Below are positions 317 through 50,039 of a DNA stretch of 64,000 nucleotides, piece after piece. Source of the DNA: an uncultured Gammaproteobacteria bacterium (GTDB lineage: Bacteria > Patescibacteriota > Microgenomatia > CAYXHB01); contig CAZLQM010000003.1 of the NCBI GenBank assembly GCA_964561945.1, forward strand, positions 1,954 through 65,953. Direction: 5' to 3'. A program made the position numbers and the translations under genes. Each line of letters starts with the position of its first letter. Position 1 is the first letter of the stretch. The notes beneath the pieces were generated by a model. That model saw only the letters and a list, made by a program, of their open reading frames with translations. It searched no databases and had not been told where the DNA came from.

Positions 317-1177
317 ATGATTTTTGATGGAAGGGCGTACGCAGGTTTGATAATTGAAAAGCTGAAAGAAAGAAGAGAGATGCTAAGTGTGGAGCCTCAC
401 TTGGTGTGGTTGTGTGTAGGTGAAGATGAGGCAAGTGTGATGTATGGAAAGCTAAAAGCGAGAGTGGCTGAGAAATTGGGAATAAAATTTACAAAAGTTT
501 ATTTGGGGAATGAAATTGATGAAGAGGATCTTAAATCAGAAATAAGGAAATATTGTGAAGATAGAGAGGTGCATGGGGTGATGGTTCAGTTACCGGCAAA
601 GGTAAAAGGAAATTTGTATCGGGTATTGGGGGAAATATGGGTAACTAAAGATGTTGATTGTCTTAATCCGTACTCTGTGGGTATGTTGATGGCGGGGAGT
701 GGAGTTAATATGCCTGCGACAGTGGGAGCCGTGGGACAGATTCTTATGTATGCTTTGGGCGAAATTGAAGCGCCAATGTATGATTTGGGTAGTTTATTAA
801 AACAGGGGAAGGTTTTGGAGGGAAAGAGAGTGGTAGTTATTGGCGGAGGATGGGAAGTGGGTAAACCATTGGTGGGGTTGTTATCAAACTGGGGGGCAAG
901 TGTGTTATGGGTCCGATCGAGCGAACGAAATTTGGGTGAAATTGTTAAATTGGGAGATGTGGTAATTAGCGCGACGGGTGAGAAAAATTTGGTTGAAGGA
1001 TCAATGATTAAAGAAGGAGCCATTGTGATTGATGTGGGTTCTCCTAATGGCGATATAGAGTTTACTTCTGTGAGTGATGTGGCAGGGTTTTTGACGCCTG
1101 TGCCTGGTGGAGTGGGTCCTGTAACAGTTGCGTGTTTGATGGAGAATGTAATAAATGCTGTTGAGAAATCTGTTTAG
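317..1177 (+). CDS. folD: bifunctional methylenetetrahydrofolate dehydrogenase/cyclohydrolase
   Basis: 286 aa; FolD-like motifs DVDCLNPYSVGML and TPVPGGVGPVTVACLMEN; Rossmann GGGxxVG. Confidence 0.88.
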   Translation: MIFDGRAYAGLIIEKLKERREMLSVEPHLVWLCVGEDEASVMYGKLKARVAEKLGIKFTKVYLGNEIDEEDLKSEIRKYCEDREVHGVMVQLPAKVKGNLYRVLGEIWVTKDVDCLNPYSVGMLMAGSGVNMPATVGAVGQILMYALGEIEAPMYDLGSLLKQGKVLEGKRVVVIGGGWEVGKPLVGLLSNWGASVLWVRSSERNLGEIVKLGDVVISATGEKNLVEGSMIKEGAIVIDVGSPNGDIEFTSVSDVAGFLTPVPGGVGPVTVACLMENVINAVEKSV

Positions 1178-1230: not shown

Positions 1231-2400
1231 TTAGAGAAGGATGACTAAGGCTCCTAGTAAGGCTATGGTGACGATGGAACCGAGGATGATTGTTGGAGTG
1301 CTAGTGCCTGCTACGGGTAGTGTTGGGCTGAGTTCTGGGGTTGTTTGGGCGATGGTTTTGGGAGTTGGAGTAGGTGTTGGATTAACTCCCGGTGTAGTGG
1401 CTGAGGTTGTTGGCTTGTAGCTAATTTCGTTAGAGGCGGAAGAGACGGCACAACCTTTTTGGGATCTGACTACGAAGTAGAAAGTTTTGGTTAGATCGAG
1501 GCTATTGATTTGGTAGCTGGTGGTTTTGCCGGTATTAGGAACTCCAAAGAGGTAAGTATTGGGTTGGTAGCCGTAACTTACAATATAGTATTCTACGTTA
1601 GCATCGGGCTGAGTCCATGTTAAGGTAACGCTTGAATCGCCAGATTTAGTTGCAGTTAGCATGGTTGGTGCAGGTGGAGCTGTGTCATAGCAACCAGGAG
1701 GCGTGGTGGGAGGAGTGGCGGTAGGTGGAACTGGTGTAGCAGAAGCTCTGGTGGTAGGAGTGGCAGTTGGAGTTAGAGTTATGGTGGCTGTTGGTGTTGG
1801 AGGGTGGGTTGGGGAGACAGTCCCTGTGGGGGTTGGAGTGGCTGTTAAGCTACGTGTGGGAGTGGGGGTATTGGTGGGTCTGCTGGTTGGAGTGGGTGTT
1901 GAGGTAGTTGTGGTACATTGGAAAGGTGCGTAACGTATTTTTTTGGGGTTGATGTCGACAGAGGCTTGGGTGCCTGTATTAAATACCTCTACATAGAGGA
2001 CCCCTGTGCTGAGATTATTGGTATCCGTAGTGATGGTTCCTGTTATTGGATTGTTACAGATGTTAGTGTGGGTTTTCTTTTGTTGGGTTTGGAGATCTCG
2101 GACTATGATATCTTTACAAGGATTAAAGCCGATATTGGAAGGTAGGGTAATACTGTAATTAAGAGTTACTTTGGAAGATTGGGTATCGCAACGTGGAGTG
2201 ACAACTATTTGCGTGGTATGAGCTTCGGTTGGGGTGGGAGCGATTTTTTGGCGTTTATTGAGGACGTAAGAGATGACTAGAGCAGAAATTCCCAAAATAA
2301 GTAGGATGAGAATTCCGATAGTGAGTTGAAGTCGAGTTTTACGAGTAATCATAATTGGACACTTACTATTAGGATTGCAGGTTTTACGTGGGGTTGTCAA
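1231..2400 (-). CDS. surface/secreted protein with N-terminal signal anchor, Thr/Pro-rich linkers and a fibronectin-III-like segment
   Basis: 389 aa; N-terminal hydrophobic helix; long PT/TPT repeats; FN3-like stretch SSVTLTWTQPDANVEYYIVSYGY. Confidence 0.5.
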   Translation of the reverse strand: MTTPRKTCNPNSKCPIMITRKTRLQLTIGILILLILGISALVISYVLNKRQKIAPTPTEAHTTQIVVTPRCDTQSSKVTLNYSITLPSNIGFNPCKDIIVRDLQTQQKKTHTNICNNPITGTITTDTNNLSTGVLYVEVFNTGTQASVDINPKKIRYAPFQCTTTTSTPTPTSRPTNTPTPTRSLTATPTPTGTVSPTHPPTPTATITLTPTATPTTRASATPVPPTATPPTTPPGCYDTAPPAPTMLTATKSGDSSVTLTWTQPDANVEYYIVSYGYQPNTYLFGVPNTGKTTSYQINSLDLTKTFYFVVRSQKGCAVSSASNEISYKPTTSATTPGVNPTPTPTPKTIAQTTPELSPTLPVAGTSTPTIILGSIVTIALLGALVILL

Positions 2401-2545
2401 TTGGCTAGTTGTTTAGTAGAATATGTTCATTACTCACACTTAGTTAGTACTCTCTGCTAGCTTGCTAGTTTTTGCTAAGTGGCGGAATAAGAGAGGCACA
2501 TAAATAATTTGTGTCTCCTGTTTGTCCGCAAATAGGAGTTTTTTT

Positions 2546-3295
2546 ATGACTGAAGAAGTATCATTAAACGAATTACTTGAAGCAGGATGTCATTTTGGGC
2601 ATCAGGCTCGTAGGTGGAATCCGAGAATGAAGCCCTATCTTTATGCCAAACGTGATGGTTTACATGTGTTTGATTTGGTTAAAACTAAGGAAGGATTGGA
2701 ATCTGCGATGAAATATTTGTCTGAAGCGTCTAAGGAAGGTAAGAGAATTGTATTTATTGCAACCAAAAGACAAGCTCAAGATATTGTAAAGGAAGCCGCC
2801 ATGCGGGCAGGTGTAGGGTATGTGACTGAGCGTTGGCTTGGAGGAATGTTGACTAATTATGATCAAATGCGCCGAAGCATGACGCGAATGAAAAAAATGA
2901 AAACGCAAAAAGAACAAGGTCAGCTCAAGCAATATACAAAGAAAGAACAATTGTTAATAGAAAGAGACATTGTTAAGATGGAAAAGAACTTAGGTGGCAT
3001 GGCAGTGTATGAATCTCAGCCTGAAGTTTTGGTGGTAGTGGATACGAGAAGAGAAAAAGTAGCGGTTGATGAAGCAAGGAGTATTAATATTCCTGTGGTT
3101 GGAATTGTGGATTCTAATGCTGATCCCTCGATGGTTGATTATGTGATTCCTGCAAATGATGATGCAGTTAAATCAGTGTTTTTGTTGGTTAATAAATTGG
3201 CTGATGCAATAATTGCAGGAAAAAATAAAGTTGAAGAAAAAAAAGAAGTTGTGGATAAAGAAAAGAAAGATAGTAAAGTAAAAAAAGAAAAATAA
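2546..3295 (+). CDS. rpsB: 30S ribosomal protein S2 with Lys-rich C-terminal tail
   Basis: S2 N-terminus LLEAGCHFGHQARRWNPRM; AGGAG RBS 7 nt before ATG at 2546 (the ORF track starts at an upstream TTG, 2522); rpsB-tsf-frr synteny. Confidence 0.9.
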   Translation: MTEEVSLNELLEAGCHFGHQARRWNPRMKPYLYAKRDGLHVFDLVKTKEGLESAMKYLSEASKEGKRIVFIATKRQAQDIVKEAAMRAGVGYVTERWLGGMLTNYDQMRRSMTRMKKMKTQKEQGQLKQYTKKEQLLIERDIVKMEKNLGGMAVYESQPEVLVVVDTRREKVAVDEARSINIPVVGIVDSNADPSMVDYVIPANDDAVKSVFLLVNKLADAIIAGKNKVEEKKEVVDKEKKDSKVKKEK

Positions 3296-3296
3296 T

Positions 3297-3767
3297 ATGG
3301 CAAAATCATCACTTGAGTTAATTAAGAAATTGCGTGAAGAAACCGGAGCTGGGGTGGTGGATTGTAGAACTGCTTTGGAGGAAAATGACGGAGATATAGC
3401 TAAGGCAAAGGAATTTTTGGTAGCCAAGGGTTTGGAAAAGGCAGCTAAGAAAGCTGATCGAGTGGCAAACTCAGGATTAGTTTTTGCGTATATTCATGGA
3501 GGTGGAAAAGTTGGAGCTATGGTAGAGATTGCTTGTGAAACGGATTTCGTAGCTAAGACAGATGAATTTAATCATTTGGCGAAGGAAATTGCGATGCAAG
3601 TTGCTTCGATGGATGCTAAGGACTTGGAAGAATTGTTAGCTCAGTCATATATTAGAGATAGCAAAATGACGATTGATGGATTAGTAAAATCTGCTGTGGC
3701 TAAGATTGGTGAAAATATAATGATTAAGAGATTTGTGCGGTATGGATTGGGTGAAGAGATTGAATAA
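3297..3767 (+). CDS. tsf: translation elongation factor Ts (short form)
   Basis: N-terminal UBA-like ELIKKLREETGAGVVDCRTALEE; directly follows rpsB. Confidence 0.85.
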   Translation: MAKSSLELIKKLREETGAGVVDCRTALEENDGDIAKAKEFLVAKGLEKAAKKADRVANSGLVFAYIHGGGKVGAMVEIACETDFVAKTDEFNHLAKEIAMQVASMDAKDLEELLAQSYIRDSKMTIDGLVKSAVAKIGENIMIKRFVRYGLGEEIE

Positions 3768-21401: not shown

Positions 21402-22382
21402 CTATTTGAGGAGCAAAACCCCAAAGTCATGGTTTGGTTCGTTGGTTGCAGATCCGTGGATGAATTTATCTCGTCGTGATATTTGACGTGAAGAGGTTTG
21501 GTGAGTGTTGTTTGTTAATTCTAGTGGAAGGGGGATATCTGCGGTGAGACATTGTCGTGCATAAATATCAGCATAATTACCTGATTCCGCCAAGAGAACG
21601 TTAATTCTTCTTCTATGAATGTTGAGCATGGTTATTTTGGCAAGAGAGGTAACAGTGTCATCACCTTTGAGTTCTTTGGTTTTTGCTTTGTTTATGCGTT
21701 TGAGAGATTTGAGCTGGTTGATTTTTTGGATTAGTTCATCTGGATTACGAATGACAGAAAATCTATGAGGAAGAGGGATATTATTTGTTTGGAAATTGTT
21801 CTGTTCTAAGTTTTTGATAAATTCTTCTTGTGCGTGTTTTTCGCTATCACCTTCGAGTTGGGATAATTGTTTAATTTGGTTTTGGGTTAATTGAGCATAG
21901 TCGTATCTACTTAAGAATTGACTGATATCTTGGATGTTAGCAAAGTCTAATTTATCAATTGGTTGATTTAATGTTTGTGACAATTGTTGTTTGCCTTGAT
22001 CGGTTAGGAAGTATTCTAGGAAAAAATTAGAAGCTTGGATGGTTATAGCATAGGTTGATTCTAGGCTGGGAGTTTGAAGTGTTTCTCCGGTGGGGAACGT
22101 ATGAGTAAGGTATCCAAGGGGTATGGCTTCTTGGGTATCAGAATTAATTGAGGTTGACCCACATGTAAGTTCATGCTCAAATGTGAGGACTTGATCTTTT
22201 TCTTCTGGAGTTAGAGAGAACTTGGGTTCTTGAGATAGGGTTTCTAGGTAAGATTCGATTGCAATTGCTGGACGTTCTGGGTAAGGGTAGTAACGAGATT
22301 CGGGGTGCACTATGTGATTATATAATATTATGTATCTTTGTGATAAGTTGACTAATTTCTGGTTGGAGTTGATTATGTTCAT
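21402..22382 (-). CDS. hypothetical protein (probable N-terminal part of the frameshifted gene)
   Basis: 326 aa; ends inside a GGGGTTTT homopolymer region where the downstream frame is open. Confidence 0.4.
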   Translation of the reverse strand: MNIINSNQKLVNLSQRYIILYNHIVHPESRYYPYPERPAIAIESYLETLSQEPKFSLTPEEKDQVLTFEHELTCGSTSINSDTQEAIPLGYLTHTFPTGETLQTPSLESTYAITIQASNFFLEYFLTDQGKQQLSQTLNQPIDKLDFANIQDISQFLSRYDYAQLTQNQIKQLSQLEGDSEKHAQEEFIKNLEQNNFQTNNIPLPHRFSVIRNPDELIQKINQLKSLKRINKAKTKELKGDDTVTSLAKITMLNIHRRRINVLLAESGNYADIYARQCLTADIPLPLELTNNTHQTSSRQISRRDKFIHGSATNEPNHDFGVLLLK

Positions 22383-23679
22383 TTAGAGATTTGGTAGGAA
22401 TGAGCATTTTGAGATATCGTTTACCCGGTTTAATTAATGCGTTAGGATTTGGCGTTTCATAAAGGAAGTATTGATAAGGAGTCAATTTAGGAAAAAGTGG
22501 GTTAGGATGGTTGGATGTCTTTGAAGGTGGAGCACTTGGGTCTTGAATAGAGTAAATGCCTGATTTGATAATATTTGGTTTTATTGGTTGGGCGTATGAA
22601 TTATAAAAAATTAAATATGAGAGAGTTGGGGGGTCGAAATTTATTGAATTAATTTTATCGAGTTGATTTGTGGTAAGTTTATAGGGAATTTGGAGGTGTT
22701 CAAGAATGTGGAGATATTGGAGGGGGATTGTGTTTTTATTGATTTGAATGGCAGTTAAAATCGGAGTCATATCTGTTAAGCGAGCATTAATCTCGATGAT
22801 ATATATTTGGTTATCTGATGTTTTGATAGCATCAATCCCAAAGATTCCTAAATATCCGTATTGAAACATTATTTTTCCTGCTACTTGAGCTTGATTTTGG
22901 AGGAATTGAATATCTTGTTTGGTAAAATCATTTGGAGACCATTGTCCTCCACAAAATTGTGATGATCCTAATTTCGTTGTGTTGCAGAGTTCTGGTTGGG
23001 AAATTATTTGTTTTTGGATGCCAGAGGTTAGAGTACCGTAGTTGCTGGTGTTGCAAGCTTGAATACTTATTGAGCTTCCTTGAATAAATTTGGAGATGAT
23101 GAGAGGATTATTTTGAGTTTGAGTACTTAGATTATTGAGTGAGTTTTGGAATTCTTGGTAGCTATTGATTATATAAGTTCCTCTTCCTCCACTTAACATT
23201 GAATGTTGGATAACAAATTTGCCATATTTAGAATTTAAAGTTTTGAATTTTTGCAGGGGTGATTGGATTAGATTCGGGAGATATATAAATTCAAAAGGGG
23301 GAAATTTGAGATTGGGAATGGTTTGTCTAACTTTTGATTTGTTTTCGAATTTTTTATATATTTTGTAGTTGTTTTGGAGTATTGGAATATTTAATTTTAG
23401 GGGAGTTGGCTTGTATAGAATAACAGCTGTAATTGCAAGTTTGTGGAGCATTTTTGTGATTTGAGGGTTTAGAAATATTGTTTCTGTTTTGGCGTTAGAT
23501 GTGTTTACTAGATGATGAACTTTATCGAGATTGGGGTATTGGGATATCCAGTTTGCAGGTTTGGTGGTGATAATGGAATAGTTGTTAAGAATTGTTTCTA
23601 GTCCAGTACGGTCTGAGAATTTGAGACCAACTCCAACGATTTTGTGTTTTTGTAATTGCAGAAGAGAGGGGAGGTACAT
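22318..23679 (-). CDS. ATP-grasp family protein (putative peptide/amide ligase)
   Basis: 453 aa; GIFGIDAIK...IYIIEINARLT resembles the ATP-grasp C-terminal catalytic motif. Confidence 0.5.
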   Translation of the reverse strand: MYLPSLLQLQKHKIVGVGLKFSDRTGLETILNNYSIITTKPANWISQYPNLDKVHHLVNTSNAKTETIFLNPQITKMLHKLAITAVILYKPTPLKLNIPILQNNYKIYKKFENKSKVRQTIPNLKFPPFEFIYLPNLIQSPLQKFKTLNSKYGKFVIQHSMLSGGRGTYIINSYQEFQNSLNNLSTQTQNNPLIISKFIQGSSISIQACNTSNYGTLTSGIQKQIISQPELCNTTKLGSSQFCGGQWSPNDFTKQDIQFLQNQAQVAGKIMFQYGYLGIFGIDAIKTSDNQIYIIEINARLTDMTPILTAIQINKNTIPLQYLHILEHLQIPYKLTTNQLDKINSINFDPPTLSYLIFYNSYAQPIKPNIIKSGIYSIQDPSAPPSKTSNHPNPLFPKLTPYQYFLYETPNPNALIKPGKRYLKMLIPTKSLNEHNQLQPEISQLITKIHNII

Positions 23680-23759: not shown

Positions 23760-24317
23760 CTAAGTTTTGAGATGGGTGATTTGGTTGATGAGCATGGTTC
23801 GGTCCCAGAGTTCGATTTGGTTGGCTGTGGCCAATTCTTTGGCGGCACGGGTGAAGTAACTGTTGGTTACGACGATGCCTCGATCGGCCTTGTAGTAACC
23901 TTTGGCACCAATTGTTTGTTGTATAGCTTCGATGCCGACGGTTTGGTCGTAGCGTTTGGCTTGGACGACGATAGTTTGGCCGTCGCGTTCGAGGAGTAGA
24001 TCGCATCCAAAATCGCCAGTGTCACCGATGTTAGTGCTTTTAAATTTAAGTTGTTGGAAAAGCCAGTGAAGATAGTCTTCGAATCGAGATCCTTCCATAC
24101 GGTCAATATCGCGGATACCTGAACGGATGAGCTTGAGGTGTCTGCGGATGTGGATGGTGACTTGTAGGATAATTACAATTAAGGGAACAATCCAAAGTGG
24201 CCAGAGGCGTGGAAGTGTGTATGTAAAGAATACTTTGATATATTGATTTATATTAAGATTGGTTAAGTCAGAGAATGATTGATTTATTTGAGATGTGTAG
24301 TTTTCAATTGTGGGCAT
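23760..24317 (-). CDS. membrane-anchored restriction-endonuclease-like (Mrr_cat, PD-(D/E)xK) domain protein
   Basis: N-terminal TM helix; DTGDFGCDLLLERDGQTIVVQAKRY matches the Mrr catalytic core pattern (D...D/E.K, QxKRY). Confidence 0.55.
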   Translation of the reverse strand: MPTIENYTSQINQSFSDLTNLNINQYIKVFFTYTLPRLWPLWIVPLIVIILQVTIHIRRHLKLIRSGIRDIDRMEGSRFEDYLHWLFQQLKFKSTNIGDTGDFGCDLLLERDGQTIVVQAKRYDQTVGIEAIQQTIGAKGYYKADRGIVVTNSYFTRAAKELATANQIELWDRTMLINQITHLKT

Positions 24318-24445: not shown

Positions 24446-25579
24446 TTATTTGGGTGGAGTATTGAGATCGTAGAGGATTTTGAGATTTTTAAGAAATGAG
24501 GGGTTATTAGGGGAGATTGGTTGTGTGAATTGTTGGAGTTCTTGGAGACTGGCTTTGCCGTTCCAAGCATAATTTAGAAGATCTGGATCGTTGAGTATTT
24601 GTTGAATGACTGATAGAGTCCATTGAAAATATAGGTCTTTGGTTAGAGCTCCGGGTTGAGTAGTGTCGGAGAGGCCTCTTTTGGCTCTAAAAGTTAGATT
24701 CCAGAGAGTATTTTTATTATGGGTAAAGGTTTGAAGATATTTAAAGGTTTGTGAGAATGAATGTTCTAGGGCAAAGTTGATGGTGATAAGTGATAGGGCT
24801 GTTTTGCGTAAATGGGTTTGGGGGTTGTTAGCACGGCTAGTAATTATGGCGATGCCTTCTTCATCTTGGAAGTAGCGGGCGGTACCGTACTTAAATATTT
24901 GGTAGGGATTTTTATTCCCATTAGATAATCGGAGGAGATGTGTACCAATTTCGTGTTCGAGAGAGATATTTAATTTATTTTGGGTGCGACGAATAAGATG
25001 TGGAATTTTGATTTTGCCAAGACGAGTAATGGAGAGAATATTTTTGGTATTTTTGTGGACGCTGATAGGAGCGGTGAGATTGTATTTTCGGAGAACTTGA
25101 TTGGTGGTTTGAATAATTTGATCAAGGGTCAAATTGGGATTTGAGGTGCGGGGTTTTTTGGGAAGTTGGAGGACATAGAGAGCGTCTTTGATAAATTGAG
25201 GTTCGGGGTGACCGTAAATTTTAATTGATAAATTAGTAAACTGACTTGGTTCTTGGCCTATTTGATTAATTAAATCAAGGACAAGTAGGCATTCTTGGAG
25301 TCTGTTTAAATAGAGTTTCCCAATATCAGTATTTGGGATTTTGGGGAGAAGATTATTTATATCTTGGCGGTATTGGTCTAAGTTGGCTTTGAGTGGGCGA
25401 TACTGAAATTGAGGATTGTAGGTAAAGTTTGATTGGAAGAATTTGCGTTTTTCTTCAAGTAGGTTTATTGGGCGGGTGGCTTTGATTATTGATATGTGAG
25501 ATACGAATTTTTTTAGAAAATTATCTAGCTTGGTATAAATGGGATCAATTGGCATATGGTGATTATATATTATTCTCAT
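24446..25579 (-). CDS. DUF1704-like zincin (QEGLA-motif family, tyrosine/phenylalanine carboxypeptidase-like)
   Basis: HEIGTHLLR HExxH motif plus FQDEEGIAI resembling the QEGLA signature; this family commonly pairs with ATP-grasp ligases. Confidence 0.45.
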   Translation of the reverse strand: MRIIYNHHMPIDPIYTKLDNFLKKFVSHISIIKATRPINLLEEKRKFFQSNFTYNPQFQYRPLKANLDQYRQDINNLLPKIPNTDIGKLYLNRLQECLLVLDLINQIGQEPSQFTNLSIKIYGHPEPQFIKDALYVLQLPKKPRTSNPNLTLDQIIQTTNQVLRKYNLTAPISVHKNTKNILSITRLGKIKIPHLIRRTQNKLNISLEHEIGTHLLRLSNGNKNPYQIFKYGTARYFQDEEGIAIITSRANNPQTHLRKTALSLITINFALEHSFSQTFKYLQTFTHNKNTLWNLTFRAKRGLSDTTQPGALTKDLYFQWTLSVIQQILNDPDLLNYAWNGKASLQELQQFTQPISPNNPSFLKNLKILYDLNTPPK

Positions 25580-45197: not shown

Positions 45198-45284
45198 TGG
45201 TGCCGGGGGCGGGAATCGAACCCGCACCTAGTTGCCTAGACAGGTTTTTGAGACCTGCGCGTCTGCCAGTTCCGCCACCCCGGC
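45198..45284 (-). tRNA. tRNA-Leu (anticodon CAA), type II with long variable arm, CCA encoded
   Basis: reverse complement folds as acceptor GCCGGGG/CCCCGGC, anticodon stem CAGGT/ACCTG with loop CUCAAAA, variable-arm stem CTAG/CTAG, T-arm GCGGG-TTCGATT-CCCGC. Confidence 0.85.
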
Positions 45285-46061: not shown

Positions 46062-46763
46062 ATGATGGGCAATTTATTATTTGTTTTGAGTTGGATTGCA
46101 GTATTGGTGGTCGGACCTTTTTTGATTTGGCGTAGGATTAGGGATGAATATAACGATGAAGATGTAGTTAAATTACTGTTAATTCTTATTGTTTTTAGCC
46201 TGGTTGGGGCAAAGGGTTTTGGGGTGATTGGGTGGTTGGCAATAAGTGGCTGGAAAGTAGGGAGTAATTGGTGGATGGATAGTAGACTAGATATTTGGGG
46301 TGGAGTAATGGCTGGAATGGTAGGGATGTGGTGGTATCACTTGGATCGTGCTCGAGGTTTGACGGGGGATGTTGAGGATGCAATAGCTGAAGGATATTGG
46401 TGGGTGTTAGTGATTTTGGCGTTGGGGCGAGAAGTCGCTAGATTAATGGAGGGAAACTGGGCTGGGTTGGGGTGGGTGTTGATTTGGTTGGTGGGATTAG
46501 GAGCTTTTTATTGGGTACGAGGGAAATATCGTCAGTTTAGTTGGTATCCAAGTGGTAAGGTGGGATTTGTGTTTTGGTGTTCGATGATTTTTGTTGGATT
46601 GGGGTACAGTGTGTGGGCATTTATGAGTGGGAATATATTGTTAGGATTTGGGAGGTTTGTGTTTGGTTTTGGGACCACGATTTTTGGGTTAATTGGTTGG
46701 TATCGCAGATCTGGACGCAAGGTGCGTAAGGATTTTGGGTGGTTACCTGGAGTAAGATTTTAG
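46062..46763 (+). CDS. polytopic membrane protein, distant Lgt-like (prolipoprotein diacylglyceryl transferase family?)
   Basis: Gly/Trp-rich TM protein immediately upstream of lspA; motif conservation weak. Confidence 0.35.
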   Translation: MMGNLLFVLSWIAVLVVGPFLIWRRIRDEYNDEDVVKLLLILIVFSLVGAKGFGVIGWLAISGWKVGSNWWMDSRLDIWGGVMAGMVGMWWYHLDRARGLTGDVEDAIAEGYWWVLVILALGREVARLMEGNWAGLGWVLIWLVGLGAFYWVRGKYRQFSWYPSGKVGFVFWCSMIFVGLGYSVWAFMSGNILLGFGRFVFGFGTTIFGLIGWYRRSGRKVRKDFGWLPGVRF

Positions 46764-47924: not shown

Positions 47925-48029
47925 TGGCTTAAGGTACAATTTTGAAATTTATTCATATGAATGAACGGTTATATTTTTTATTGTTTATAGTTGCTAATAG
48001 GGGAAGCGTGGGGTGGATGGGTATGATAA

Positions 48030-48512
48030 TTAGGGTTTACATATTCCACTGATACAGCTTATCGGGGAGCAACACGTTGATGATCCTCCACAAGTTTCTC
48101 CAACTTTTTGGCAGGGGACGGGGGTTGGGGTAGGTACAAACTTAGGTGTAGGTATTGTTGATGCTGGTGGGGGAGTAAAGATTGAGCCTGGGGCTTGGAA
48201 GACTGAGATACCAAGGAAGTACTGGACAAGGAGAGCAATGGTGTAGGTTAGTGAGAGAACTGCAAAGCCAAAGAGGCAGTTGGTGATTTTGGTTCTGGAT
48301 GAGCTGACGGTGTTAGTATCACCACCTGAGTTAATCCATTGGACTCCGTAGATGATAATACACATAAAGAGTATAAGAGCTCCGATGATGAGTGACCAAC
48401 CTATGGCTTGAGAAATTAAGCCAAAGACATCAGTAATTTGGAAGGAGGTTTGAAGTTTTGGGTTACGTAGTTCAACATCAAGATTAGAGACTATGGTTGC
48501 GTAGAGCCACAT
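48030..48512 (-). CDS. pilin-like (VirB2/TrbC-like two-TM N-domain) protein with Cys-rich C-terminal tail; short paralog
   Basis: first 143 aa identical to 48600..49922; tail CCSPISCISGICKP. Confidence 0.45.
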   Translation of the reverse strand: MWLYATIVSNLDVELRNPKLQTSFQITDVFGLISQAIGWSLIIGALILFMCIIIYGVQWINSGGDTNTVSSSRTKITNCLFGFAVLSLTYTIALLVQYFLGISVFQAPGSIFTPPPASTIPTPKFVPTPTPVPCQKVGETCGGSSTCCSPISCISGICKP

Positions 48513-48521
48513 ACGCTAATG
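48081..48521. repeat. direct repeat copy 1 (~440 bp, identical to 49491..49930)
   Basis: read directly; covers the 5' end and start codon of the pilin-like paralogs. Confidence 0.8.
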
Positions 48522-48599
48522 TTAGAAGTTTGGAGATTTTAACTCAAGGAGAGAAAAATGTGATTGTAGTTGGGTTGGAGAAGAAAGTGGATAATTAAT

Positions 48600-49922
48600 T
48601 TAAGGTAGTGGAGTAGGGGTTGGTGTGGGTGTTGGGGGTGGAGGAAGGACTGGTAATGTAGTTGGATCAGCTTGTGGTCCTGCATTAGCATCGCAGTTTT
48701 GGTATGCATTGGATACCATGCCTGGACTAAACTCTTCATTGTCATCAGCGTAATAAATGACTTCGTCTATGTATCCTTGAAATTCTCCTCCCCAATCGCT
48801 GGTGTTAGTATAACCACCAATTGTTAGTGGATTGTTTAATGGGGTGCTGAATGCCGGATTTATTGTTGATGTACTAGTTTGTAGACCATTTATATATGTG
48901 TTAATTGTATTTGTAGTTCTGTTGAAGGTTAACATGACATGTGTCCATGCTGGTGGGGTGGTAGAAATTGATGTTTCTTCAATTTTAAATATTCCACCAT
49001 AATTTGTGTAAGAAATTCTAAAATTTCCATTTGCTATTATACTTCCTTTATCTTCTAACTTTGGTACATCAGGCTTAATCCAAGCACCCATAGCCATAAA
49101 GTTCATACTAGTTTCGTTGATTCCAGTTCCGACAATTTCTCCTCCAGCCACTCCTCCATAATAATACATGCTTCCTCCACAACCACCGGCATTGGGTACC
49201 CATACGTTATTTCCTGTTCCGTATTCTTTTATCAAAGTTTTTGCTTCGGTTTTGGTTATTGGATTAGTAAAGGTTAGTGTTGCTGTAGAACCAGAGATAT
49301 TAATTACTGGTGTATCTTTGTGGTTAAAATAATAAAAGTAACTTGGATTATTTACTGCTGTCGCTGGAGGTGGTAGCGTGCCACCTGCGGGTGGGGGAAC
49401 AATTGGTGGTGGGGGAATAATTACTGGAGCTATGTTGTAACCGCAAGTTGAGACTATAGGGGTACAAGTTAATCCTGTACAACAATTTAGTGATCCTCCA
49501 CAAGTTTCTCCAACTTTTTGGCAGGGGACGGGGGTTGGGGTAGGTACAAACTTAGGTGTAGGTATTGTTGATGCTGGTGGGGGAGTAAAGATTGAGCCTG
49601 GGGCTTGGAAGACTGAGATACCAAGGAAGTACTGGACAAGGAGAGCAATGGTGTAGGTTAGTGAGAGAACTGCAAAGCCAAAGAGGCAGTTGGTGATTTT
49701 GGTTCTGGATGAGCTGACGGTGTTAGTATCACCACCTGAGTTAATCCATTGGACTCCGTAGATGATAATACACATAAAGAGTATAAGAGCTCCGATGATG
49801 AGTGACCAACCTATGGCTTGAGAAATTAAGCCAAAGACATCAGTAATTTGGAAGGAGGTTTGAAGTTTTGGGTTACGTAGTTCAACATCAAGATTAGAGA
49901 CTATGGTTGCGTAGAGCCACAT
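48600..49922 (-). CDS. pilin-like N-domain fused to Cys-rich spacer, LamG/concanavalin-A-like lectin domain and Pro/Thr-rich tail (putative adhesin)
   Basis: two TM helices; CQKVGETCGGS..CC..C..C; LamG-like region with aromatic/Gly-rich beta-strand pattern; PTPTPTPLP tail. Confidence 0.45.
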   Translation of the reverse strand: MWLYATIVSNLDVELRNPKLQTSFQITDVFGLISQAIGWSLIIGALILFMCIIIYGVQWINSGGDTNTVSSSRTKITNCLFGFAVLSLTYTIALLVQYFLGISVFQAPGSIFTPPPASTIPTPKFVPTPTPVPCQKVGETCGGSLNCCTGLTCTPIVSTCGYNIAPVIIPPPPIVPPPAGGTLPPPATAVNNPSYFYYFNHKDTPVINISGSTATLTFTNPITKTEAKTLIKEYGTGNNVWVPNAGGCGGSMYYYGGVAGGEIVGTGINETSMNFMAMGAWIKPDVPKLEDKGSIIANGNFRISYTNYGGIFKIEETSISTTPPAWTHVMLTFNRTTNTINTYINGLQTSTSTINPAFSTPLNNPLTIGGYTNTSDWGGEFQGYIDEVIYYADDNEEFSPGMVSNAYQNCDANAGPQADPTTLPVLPPPPTPTPTPTPLP

Positions 49923-49930
49923 ACGCTAAT
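49491..49930. repeat. direct repeat copy 2 (~440 bp)
   Basis: identical to 48081..48521. Confidence 0.8.
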
Positions 49931-50039
49931 AGTAGAAGTTTGGAGATTGAAACTCAAGAAGAGATTTGAATAGTAATTATTTTTTTCAGCTTCTTCTCAT
50001 ATTGATGTTTTAGAATGACAGATTATATATTGATGTTAT

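Follow-up and report, generated by a model that had tools for sequence, protein, structure and literature searches.

Two adjacent genes that are identical at the nucleotide level over their first 144 codons, and that then continue into C-terminal parts of different size and content, raise the question of how such identity came about and what kind of proteins share it. The genes lie in tandem on the minus strand of a 64,000-nt stretch of DNA (here called the window, always at its full length) from an uncultured, Microgenomates-type bacterium of the candidate phyla radiation (CPR; Patescibacteria). The long paralog encodes 440 amino acids (aa; 48600..49922) and the short paralog, whose open reading frame (ORF) lies 88 nt downstream, encodes 160 aa (48030..48512); both begin with a domain, the N-domain, that belongs, by homology, to the VirB2-like pilin family PF18895. 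VirB2-like "pilins" are among the most abundant lineage-specific surface proteins of CPR/Patescibacteria, and to our knowledge the way in which these bacteria recognize and hold their hosts is largely unknown. An original prediction, made from the window's sequence, had proposed that the two genes were homogenized by gene conversion or recombination. Our results support this proposal: the most probable history is a tandem duplication of a PF18895 gene, divergence of the tails, and a recent conversion of 440 nt.

Results

A 440-nt identical segment shared by two tandem genes

Comparison of the window with itself, supported by blastn and alignment, showed uninterrupted identity (440 nt, 100%, offset 1410) between the long-gene copy at 49491..49930 and the short-gene copy at 48081..48520, both on the minus strand. 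The copies are in direct orientation about 1.4 kb apart, giving a repeat unit of 1410 nt, and a 440-nt exact repeat cannot have arisen by chance within 64 kb. Read in the sense direction, the identical run consists of the last 8 nt of the leader before the ATG and codons 1-144; the identical span that had been described is thus real, but its extent had to be corrected from 143 codons to 144 codons plus 8 nt of leader. As a further correction, both genes are on the minus strand, the long gene being the upstream one in the sense direction.

Around this core, blastn and a repeat search of the window found a wider similarity of 485 nt (48070-48554 versus 49480-49964, 98.1%), and all nine mismatches of this span fall in its flanks, none in the core. 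Five are located within 34 nt on the promoter side (48521, 48522, 48539, 48540, and 48549), in line with the description of the upstream regions as alike with several mismatches, and four within 11 nt on the 3' side (48075, 48076, 48079, and 48080). Beyond the 485-nt span, the two copies could not be aligned at the nucleotide level. At the protein level, the identity breaks off between Cys2 and Cys3 of a six-Cys motif, as abruptly as had been noted: the common sequence CQKVGETCGGS is followed by STCCSPISCISGIC in the short protein and by LNCCTGLTCTPIVSTC in the long one. In the second half of this motif, alignment of the paralogs showed that the Cys codons and the reading frame are kept and little else.

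Evidence for a probable gene conversion

The expected rate of change in this gene could be read from a sister species (contig L004) that carries a single ortholog. Over the N-domain, the window differs from L004 at 75 of 339 nt (22%), with 46 codons showing synonymous changes only and 16 showing nonsynonymous changes, a pattern indicating that the N-domain is under purifying selection and yet accumulates silent changes freely. Purifying selection was therefore rejected as the cause of the identity between the paralogs; a divergence of 22% from the sister species, most of it synonymous, together with none between the paralogs argues for gene conversion, or an equivalent recent recombination, and not for selection. 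The probability of finding no mismatch in 440 nt is about 4e-31 at the divergence of the promoter-proximal stub (5/34) and 1.4e-4 at a divergence of 2%.

A very recent partial duplication without conversion, in which a 440-485-nt piece comprising the promoter, the N-domain, and half of the knot-like motif was copied once, would also produce tandem direct repeats with sharp ends, and the pair does look like a fresh segmental duplication in this respect. The copied piece, however, runs on in frame into the rest of the motif, which is homologous between the genes but strongly diverged and has correct Cys spacing. The 34 nt preceding the piece are homologous too, and the outgroup divides their 5 mismatches between the two copies. 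Since homology that has diverged is found on both sides, a homologous recipient gene must already have been present, and identity imposed on such a gene amounts to gene conversion; we therefore consider a single copying event very unlikely. It is these diverged homologous flanks and the 75 differences from the sister species that bear out the original prediction of conversion or recombination as opposed to a fresh duplication of the whole gene. Two further candidates were rejected. Campbell-type integration of a circular donor would still require a donor with an identical N-domain but a diverged stub and knot, and hence conversion; a diversity-generating retroelement does not fit a repeat that is the invariant part of the locus and has no A-biased mismatches, and no reverse transcriptase was found among the scanned ORFs.

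The upstream stub itself extends over 42 nt. In the long gene (49923..49964, minus strand), alignment identified the hexamer TTGAGT, a 17-nt spacer, and TACTAT, with 6 nt to the ATG, an element that is kept in L004; the duplicated copy ahead of the short gene (48513..48554, minus strand) has TTGAGT, a 17-nt spacer, and TAACAT, again with 6 nt to the ATG, and differs at 5 positions. The outgroup L004 sides with the long copy at two mismatches (TTTC versus TTAA) and with the short copy at two (TAAC versus TACT), and from this split it follows that both copies have changed since they separated. In a more distant species (contig L013), a -10-like hexamer is likewise located 5-7 nt before the ATG. 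No Shine-Dalgarno sequence was visible ahead of the ATG in the stubs, and it is possible that the stub is the promoter of a leaderless mRNA. A consensus promoter scan did not call the stub sites (8/12 matches for that of the long gene) and showed no enrichment, and no terminator was seen.

Family assignment of the N-terminal domain

The part common to both proteins consists of about 28 polar residues, two hydrophobic helices, and a Pro/Thr-rich stretch (aa 105-133). The N-domain proper (aa 1-104, with two transmembrane [TM] helices identified by hydropathy and AlphaFold2) is encoded at 49611..49922 in the long gene and at 48201..48512 in the short gene, both on the minus strand. Its hydropathy segments begin at aa 29 and 78, and AlphaFold2, given a 126-sequence alignment, predicted a helical hairpin (helices 29-61 and 66-100) with a predicted local distance difference test (pLDDT) score above 90. 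Conserved residues are W59, G63, G64, A72, G82, and G101. We also noted two cysteines, C51 and C79, one per TM helix, that are invariant in the 13 closest subfamily members (alignment A5) and that may pair with each other between the helices or may face lipids or a metal.

A phmmer search, run exhaustively against 1.84 billion representative sequences, returned 1776 relatives at an E value of ≤1e-3, 48 of them at ≤1e-10, and a profile of the family N-domain scores the window proteins at 1e-31. Because 59 of 63 relatives tested from among the best match PF18895 (best E value, 1.2e-14), the N-domain is by homology a divergent member of this Patescibacterial VirB2-like pilin family; the PF18895 threshold is passed by the syntenic ortholog P0006 (29.4 bits) and by P0009 (37.9 bits). 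The two-TM, VirB2/TrbC-like N-domain that had been proposed was thus borne out through its PF18895 homologs and the predicted hairpin. The TrbC/VirB2 family PF04956 gave no match at an E value of ≤0.1 for either window protein and was matched by 1 of the 63 relatives (2.4e-4), and a profile search of PDB sequences found no relative. In VirB2/TraA pilins, the inter-helix loop is cytoplasmic and both termini face outward; by analogy, the loop of the window proteins, which bears R73 and K75, would be cytoplasmic here too, with both termini directed outward.

Points against the reading and reliability of the assembly

Several observations weigh against parts of this reading. With regard to the family, PF18895 scores both window proteins under its gathering threshold of 26.6 (long, 15.5 bits and E = 0.019; short, 18.7 bits and E = 0.0018), and the N terminus has no obvious signal peptide. 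A Foldseek search of the PDB gave no significant structural neighbor, and neither VirB2 nor TraA was among the top 50 matches listed, the helical hairpin being a fold too generic to inform structural comparison. With regard to function, no type IV secretion system (T4SS) domain was found in the approximately 25 larger window ORFs scanned, all of them either housekeeping genes or unmatched in Pfam, and a pilus role is thus not supported by the gene context. With regard to the identity, the assemblies are all short-read assemblies of low coverage (SPAdes contig coverage of 3.9x and 6.6x) from datasets that may share reads, and assembler bubble-popping can hide a few real differences, so that 100% is perhaps an overestimate. 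Pilin genes in the T4SS cluster of Southlakia, a cultivated Saccharibacterium, are essential (PMC10633639); for the window proteins, a plain anchor or display role would be at least as likely as pilus polymerization, because no T4SS genes lie nearby and the extensions are large.

The tandem pair with the same 440-nt identity was also present in contigs L001 (ERZ795037; 2 single-nucleotide polymorphisms [SNPs] relative to the window in 8988 nt) and L002 (ERZ795034; 18 SNPs in 8735 nt), with none of the SNPs located in the pilin genes. Contig L003 (Logan, SRR5576005), on the other hand, resolves the repeat differently: its positions 1-1161 join window positions 50014-49491 to 48080-47444, being 100% identical to the upstream region of the long gene and the repeat and then continuing into the tail of the short gene and rluD. 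It carries three rluD SNPs of the L002 strain and starts beside a SNP site, and it could equally be a deletion recombinant between the repeats or a low-coverage artifact of collapse or tip-clipping. The hazard of assembly collapse at such repeats, of which the original prediction had warned, is illustrated by this contig.

The tandem or its perfect identity could accordingly be an assembly artifact, arising from short-read collapse, from a consensus of strain variants, or from a wrong path through the repeat graph. The contig coverage of merely 3.9-6.6x, the deviating structure of L003, and the L002-strain SNPs in L003 together with its start beside a SNP site, which point to a strain mix, are in favor of this explanation. 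However, the LamG tail of the long gene and the 88-nt spacer are bounded by the repeat on both sides, and any assembly path that uses this segment is therefore forced into the tandem order; the tandem is found in all three of the window, L001, and L002, although SNPs distinguish them from one another, and none of the three breaks off at the repeat. Moreover, bubble-popping may erase a few SNPs but not the approximately 50 expected at flank-level divergence. An artifact is therefore unlikely, and we retain recent conversion between tandem paralogs as the preferred explanation. That different assemblers resolved this repeat differently implies that the gene content of metagenome-assembled genomes (MAGs) at such loci should not be trusted without read-level checks.

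The six-Cys motif and the C-terminal modules

A spacing scan located the six-Cys motif at 49443..49523 in the long protein (CQKVGETCGGSLNCCTGLTCTPIVSTC) and at 48039..48113 in the short protein (CQKVGETCGGSSTCCSPISCISGIC), both on the minus strand. In the short protein the spacing is C-x6-C-x5-CC-x4-C-x4-C, while the motif of the long protein ends in x6-C; the knottin-type pattern tested, C-x(3-7)-C-x(3-6)-CC-x(1-4)-C-x(4-13)-C, occurs just twice when the window is translated in all six frames, once in each paralog. The same motif was found in the relatives P0152 (from L004), P0133, P0004, and P0038. A phmmer search of the PDB with the 29-residue peptide of the short protein matched the tarantula double-knot toxin DkTx (E = 0.002), with local similarity between CQKVGETCGGSSTCCSPISC and CAKEGEVCGWGSKCCHGLDC, and other inhibitor cystine knot (ICK) toxins at E = 0.24-1.1. 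The Pfam family Toxin_19 scored 16.6 bits against a cutoff of 23.2, below significance, and Foldseek listed the scorpion toxins 2kyj and 2lds with a root mean square deviation of 1.8-2.2 Å over 28-29 residues, also below significance (2kyj, E = 2.9); the pLDDT of the modeled tail was 71-81.

The knot-like character that had been assigned to the tail of the short protein is thus consistent with the spacing and with the DkTx match, but the complete motif is present in both proteins and not in the short one alone, and we regard the module as knottin-like rather than as a knottin. What it shares with ICK peptides such as DkTx and omega-conotoxins is the C-C-CC-C-C framework with matching loop lengths; those peptides are free and secreted, whereas the module described here is bacterial and lies inside a membrane-anchored protein. 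The likeness is probably convergent, and it would be unusual, should the assignment be confirmed, to find a knottin-like unit in a membrane protein of a bacterium.

The long protein comprises, in order, the PF18895-like N-domain, a Pro/Thr-rich (PT) linker, the six-Cys motif, a Pro-rich linker, a LamG/ConA-like domain, and a PT tail, as established from the ORF, from Pfam, and from collinearity with P0009. The LamG/ConA-like region spans aa ~194-412 (48687..49343, minus strand), with a Pfam-matched core at aa 298-391 (window 48750-49031), and is followed by the Pro/Thr-rich C-terminal tail (48603..48686, minus strand, from the translation). PF13385 Laminin_G_3 matches the core at E = 4.9e-12 and 46.7 bits, above its gathering threshold of 27.6, and bears out the LamG domain that, together with the PT tail, had been described for the long copy; the protein is also collinear with the LamG_3 domain of P0009, including a GGCGG motif and a C-terminal Cys. 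A single-sequence AlphaFold2 model of the long protein (pLDDT 41) was unusable past the hairpin, and the LamG fold was too poorly modeled to be confirmed in this way. The LamG part and the PT tail are the sole modules unique to the long gene, the Cys module being common to both.

The short protein has the same N-domain and linker (PF18895, E = 0.0018) and ends two residues past Cys6. The stretch following its stop codon (47925-48029, minus strand) reads LSYPSTPRFPY in frame and aligns at the DNA level with the PT-linker region of L004, so that it may be the remnant of a lost longer tail, for which this is weak evidence. Both architectures exist in other proteins. P0133 (157 aa) consists of a pilin domain, a linker, and a terminal six-Cys knot, like the short protein, and P0009 (481 aa) has the same PF18895/Cys-rich/LamG_3 architecture as the long protein, with LamG_3 at 95.9 bits; for this reason, neither window architecture gives the impression of an accidental fusion or of a simple truncation. 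The 88-nt spacer contains several stop codons, and read-through between the two genes, or their fusion, was therefore rejected as well. The lengths of the relatives range from about 100 to 660 aa, and among 152 family sequences 46 have 151-250 aa and 35 have more than 250 aa; in the longer relatives inspected, a pilin-like N-domain and a PT linker are followed by a C-terminal part that is Cys-rich or of another kind.

In a word-indexed protein search, the short protein returned the query only, the long protein returned a sister-species protein and P0006 only, and the LamG region alone gave no match. A tblastn search of phage and plasmid collections gave no match, and of two JGI metagenome scans one was empty and the other gave one unrelated 1.2-kb contig.

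The locus in related species

On one side of the pilin pair lie efp, a gene for a conserved membrane protein, lspA, and rluD, and on the other htrA, prfA, rpmE, and a Na/H exchanger gene; the order efp, membrane protein, lspA, rluD, pilin, htrA, prfA, rpmE is kept in two other species. In the sister species (L004, positions 2704-3567 on the minus strand; L014, equivalent to it, positions 2162-3025), there is one pilin-family gene of 287 aa, consisting of the N-domain, a linker, the knot CCTPLVCNSGIC, a PT linker, and an approximately 110-aa beta-rich domain, and the flanking proteins are 78-97% identical to those of the window (HtrA, 86%; EF-P, 97%). In L013 (HtrA, 63%), there is likewise one gene, encoding the 611-aa protein P0006, while in the more distant L006 and L007 no family member was found within 8 kb of htrA. 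As the sister species and L013 each have one gene at the locus, the tandem duplication is specific to the lineage of the window. The closest loci, found via HtrA, were all from MAGs, including L004 at 86% identity and L007, a "Candidatus Woesebacteria" genome, at 54%. The records of L004, L005, and L006 are labeled "uncultured Gammaproteobacteria" or "Pseudomonadales"; these labels look wrong, because L004 is syntenic with the window gene for gene. L014 and L002 stem from the same sample (ERZ795034), and the two species thus co-occur.

When compared with the LamG tail, the tail of the L004 protein showed no similarity that could be detected (best E = 1.6). Since the flanking proteins are 78-97% identical, unrelated sequence must have taken the place of the exposed tail between species that are evolutionarily close. 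The C-terminal parts at the orthologous locus are unrelated in three species, which agrees with a constant anchor combined with alternative tips; for the comparison with antigenic-variation loci that had been attached to this arrangement, no support for a programmed mechanism was found, the 64 kb containing only two copies and no silent cassettes.

Such programmed variation, in which the repeat would be the constant region of a high-frequency cassette-switching locus resembling pilE/pilS or a shufflon, deserves consideration, given that the tips differ both between the paralogs and between the sister species and that L003 is structured like a recombinant between the repeats; a published discussion of Patescibacterial VirB2 arrays, which draws a parallel to Bartonella and Anaplasma, has also invoked variation of antigens or of host range (PMC12102498). 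A search for further copies of the 440-nt segment, which the original prediction had suggested, nevertheless found just the two in the window, and the family N-domain profile found no third member there. Both copies have an ATG and a promoter-like upstream region, and neither is therefore a silent cassette; the repeats are direct, and recombination between them would therefore delete instead of switch. A repeat search of the window found no long inverted repeats flanking the two genes, the neighbors are housekeeping genes, and no recombinase was found among the adjacent genes. We consider a programmed switch at this locus highly improbable, and conversion between two tandem genes remains the explanation that we favor.

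Strand composition and other genes of the window

Over the whole window (1-64000), G makes up 28.2% and C 11.9%, a GC skew of +0.41 that is positive in every 2-kb bin. The skew at third codon positions is +0.55 to +0.82 for genes of both strands and is therefore due to a mutational bias tied to the strand instead of an effect of coding; as a consequence of this bias, minus-strand genes, including both pilin paralogs, are C-rich and so Pro/Thr/Ser-rich. The Microgenomates order UBA1400 is known to show the same disparity of G and C (PMC7143001), and we therefore place the organism of the window in Microgenomatia (CPR).

Among the other features, a tRNA gene (45201-45284, minus strand) was the sole Rfam match between 44 and 54 kb. 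An lgt-like identity for the ORF at 46062-46763 was rejected, since it has no Pfam match and can be called only a conserved membrane protein. A homolog of MATCAP/DUF1704-type carboxypeptidases (24446-25579, minus strand) lies near an ATP-grasp protein (22318-23679), with a smaller ORF (23760-24317) between them, and another surface protein is possibly encoded at 1231-2400 (minus strand), where the 389-aa product carries a fibronectin type III domain.

Discussion

Our results suggest the following history for this locus. A conserved chromosomal PF18895 gene in a Microgenomates-type CPR bacterium would have been tandemly duplicated in the lineage of the window, the duplication taking in approximately 42 nt of promoter-proximal sequence. 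The tails would then have diverged, so that the downstream copy now terminates directly after the knot. Recently, at least one gene-conversion event, presumably by RecA-type recombination between the direct repeats, would have homogenized 440 nt, the tract ending where the genes have become too different to pair. A direct repeat of this length would also make the 1410-nt unit prone to pop-out deletion, after which the promoter of the long gene would drive expression of the short protein.

At the protein level, the two-helix hairpin would serve as a pilin-like assembly or anchor module, followed by a Pro/Thr spacer of approximately 30 residues, the six-Cys module, and, in the long protein only, a LamG/ConA-like beta-sandwich. 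The parts past the hairpin are predicted to form extracellular binding tips. Both the Cys-rich and the LamG parts would need an oxidizing, extracellular location, and the PT linker would hold them off the membrane or filament. With identical N-domains, the two proteins could use the same insertion or assembly partners or the same filament, or could co-assemble, while presenting two different tips, which are plausible host- or surface-binding modules.

Much of this background is already known, including the PF18895 family, its tandem arrays, its essentiality in one Saccharibacterium, and gene conversion between paralogs, and the novelty of the locus is accordingly modest. What it adds is a very recent conversion that appears limited to the assembly or anchor module, family members whose C-terminal extensions include a knottin-like unit and a LamG domain, and a conserved chromosomal site at which the tails of sister species are unrelated, one appearing to have been swapped for the other. 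These features suggest that large exposed modules, disulfide-rich or lectin-like, can be mounted on a pilin-like domain that serves as their constant base, and that this base may be kept identical between paralogs by recombination. The locus thereby yields concrete candidates for host-binding determinants, as well as a testable population-genetic prediction, namely, that junction reads and copy-number variation should be found at the repeat.

We speculate further that the PF18895 N-domain might act both as an assembly module and as a recombination handle for the exchange of nonhomologous host-binding tips (knottin-like, LamG, and other beta domains) among strains and species of CPR episymbionts, with tandems kept compatible by conversion and resolving by pop-out, of which L003 would be a product. 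This broader idea rests on one ambiguous contig, and we consider it rather doubtful. If it were true, it would provide a simple cassette-exchange route for determinants of host recognition, and the six-Cys module would be a true knottin of a bacterium, presented on a filament or anchor of the VirB2-like type.

The closest known systems are the Patescibacterial VirB2-like arrays (PF18895/PF04956) described by Quinonero-Coronel et al. in 2025 (PMC12102498), who reported 441 arrays of 2-11 genes each in 383 assemblies. The window pair shares with them the family (by transitive homology), the phylum, and the tandem layout; these arrays are especially abundant in Microgenomatia, and the variability of their tips or sequences has been proposed to serve host interaction. 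Identity within the published arrays has a mean of 25% and a maximum of 54%, whereas the window pair is 100% identical over 144 residues, and the window proteins, which would fall outside the detection cutoff of that study (i-Evalue, <0.001), carry long C-terminal extensions (knot and LamG). The pilins were near virB4 or other T4SS genes in 1135 of 1948 assemblies, a typical but not obligatory arrangement (PMC12102498), while no T4SS component was found among the scanned ORFs of the window. In its identity, the window pair is an outlier among such arrays. An example of the usual kind was seen in a JGI contig, L012, where two tandem PF18895-like ORFs (430-774 and 804-1157, plus strand) are 51% identical.

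Concerted evolution by gene conversion between tandem paralogs is known from tuf, from rRNA genes, and from families of surface proteins, and the window locus resembles these cases in having a sharply bounded tract of identity within older, diverged homology and in the direct orientation of its repeats. It differs in that just the assembly or anchor module would have been homogenized, while the exposed parts differ, and in that a single species was sampled. Alternative exposed C termini joined to a conserved N-terminal domain for assembly are also characteristic of the PilV shufflon of R64 and of pilE/pilS in Neisseria. Those systems, however, are built on type IV pilins and operate by recombinase-mediated, site-specific inversion or from silent cassettes, whereas the locus described here combines a VirB2-like domain with two direct copies that both look expressed, with neither a recombinase nor a silent cassette found.

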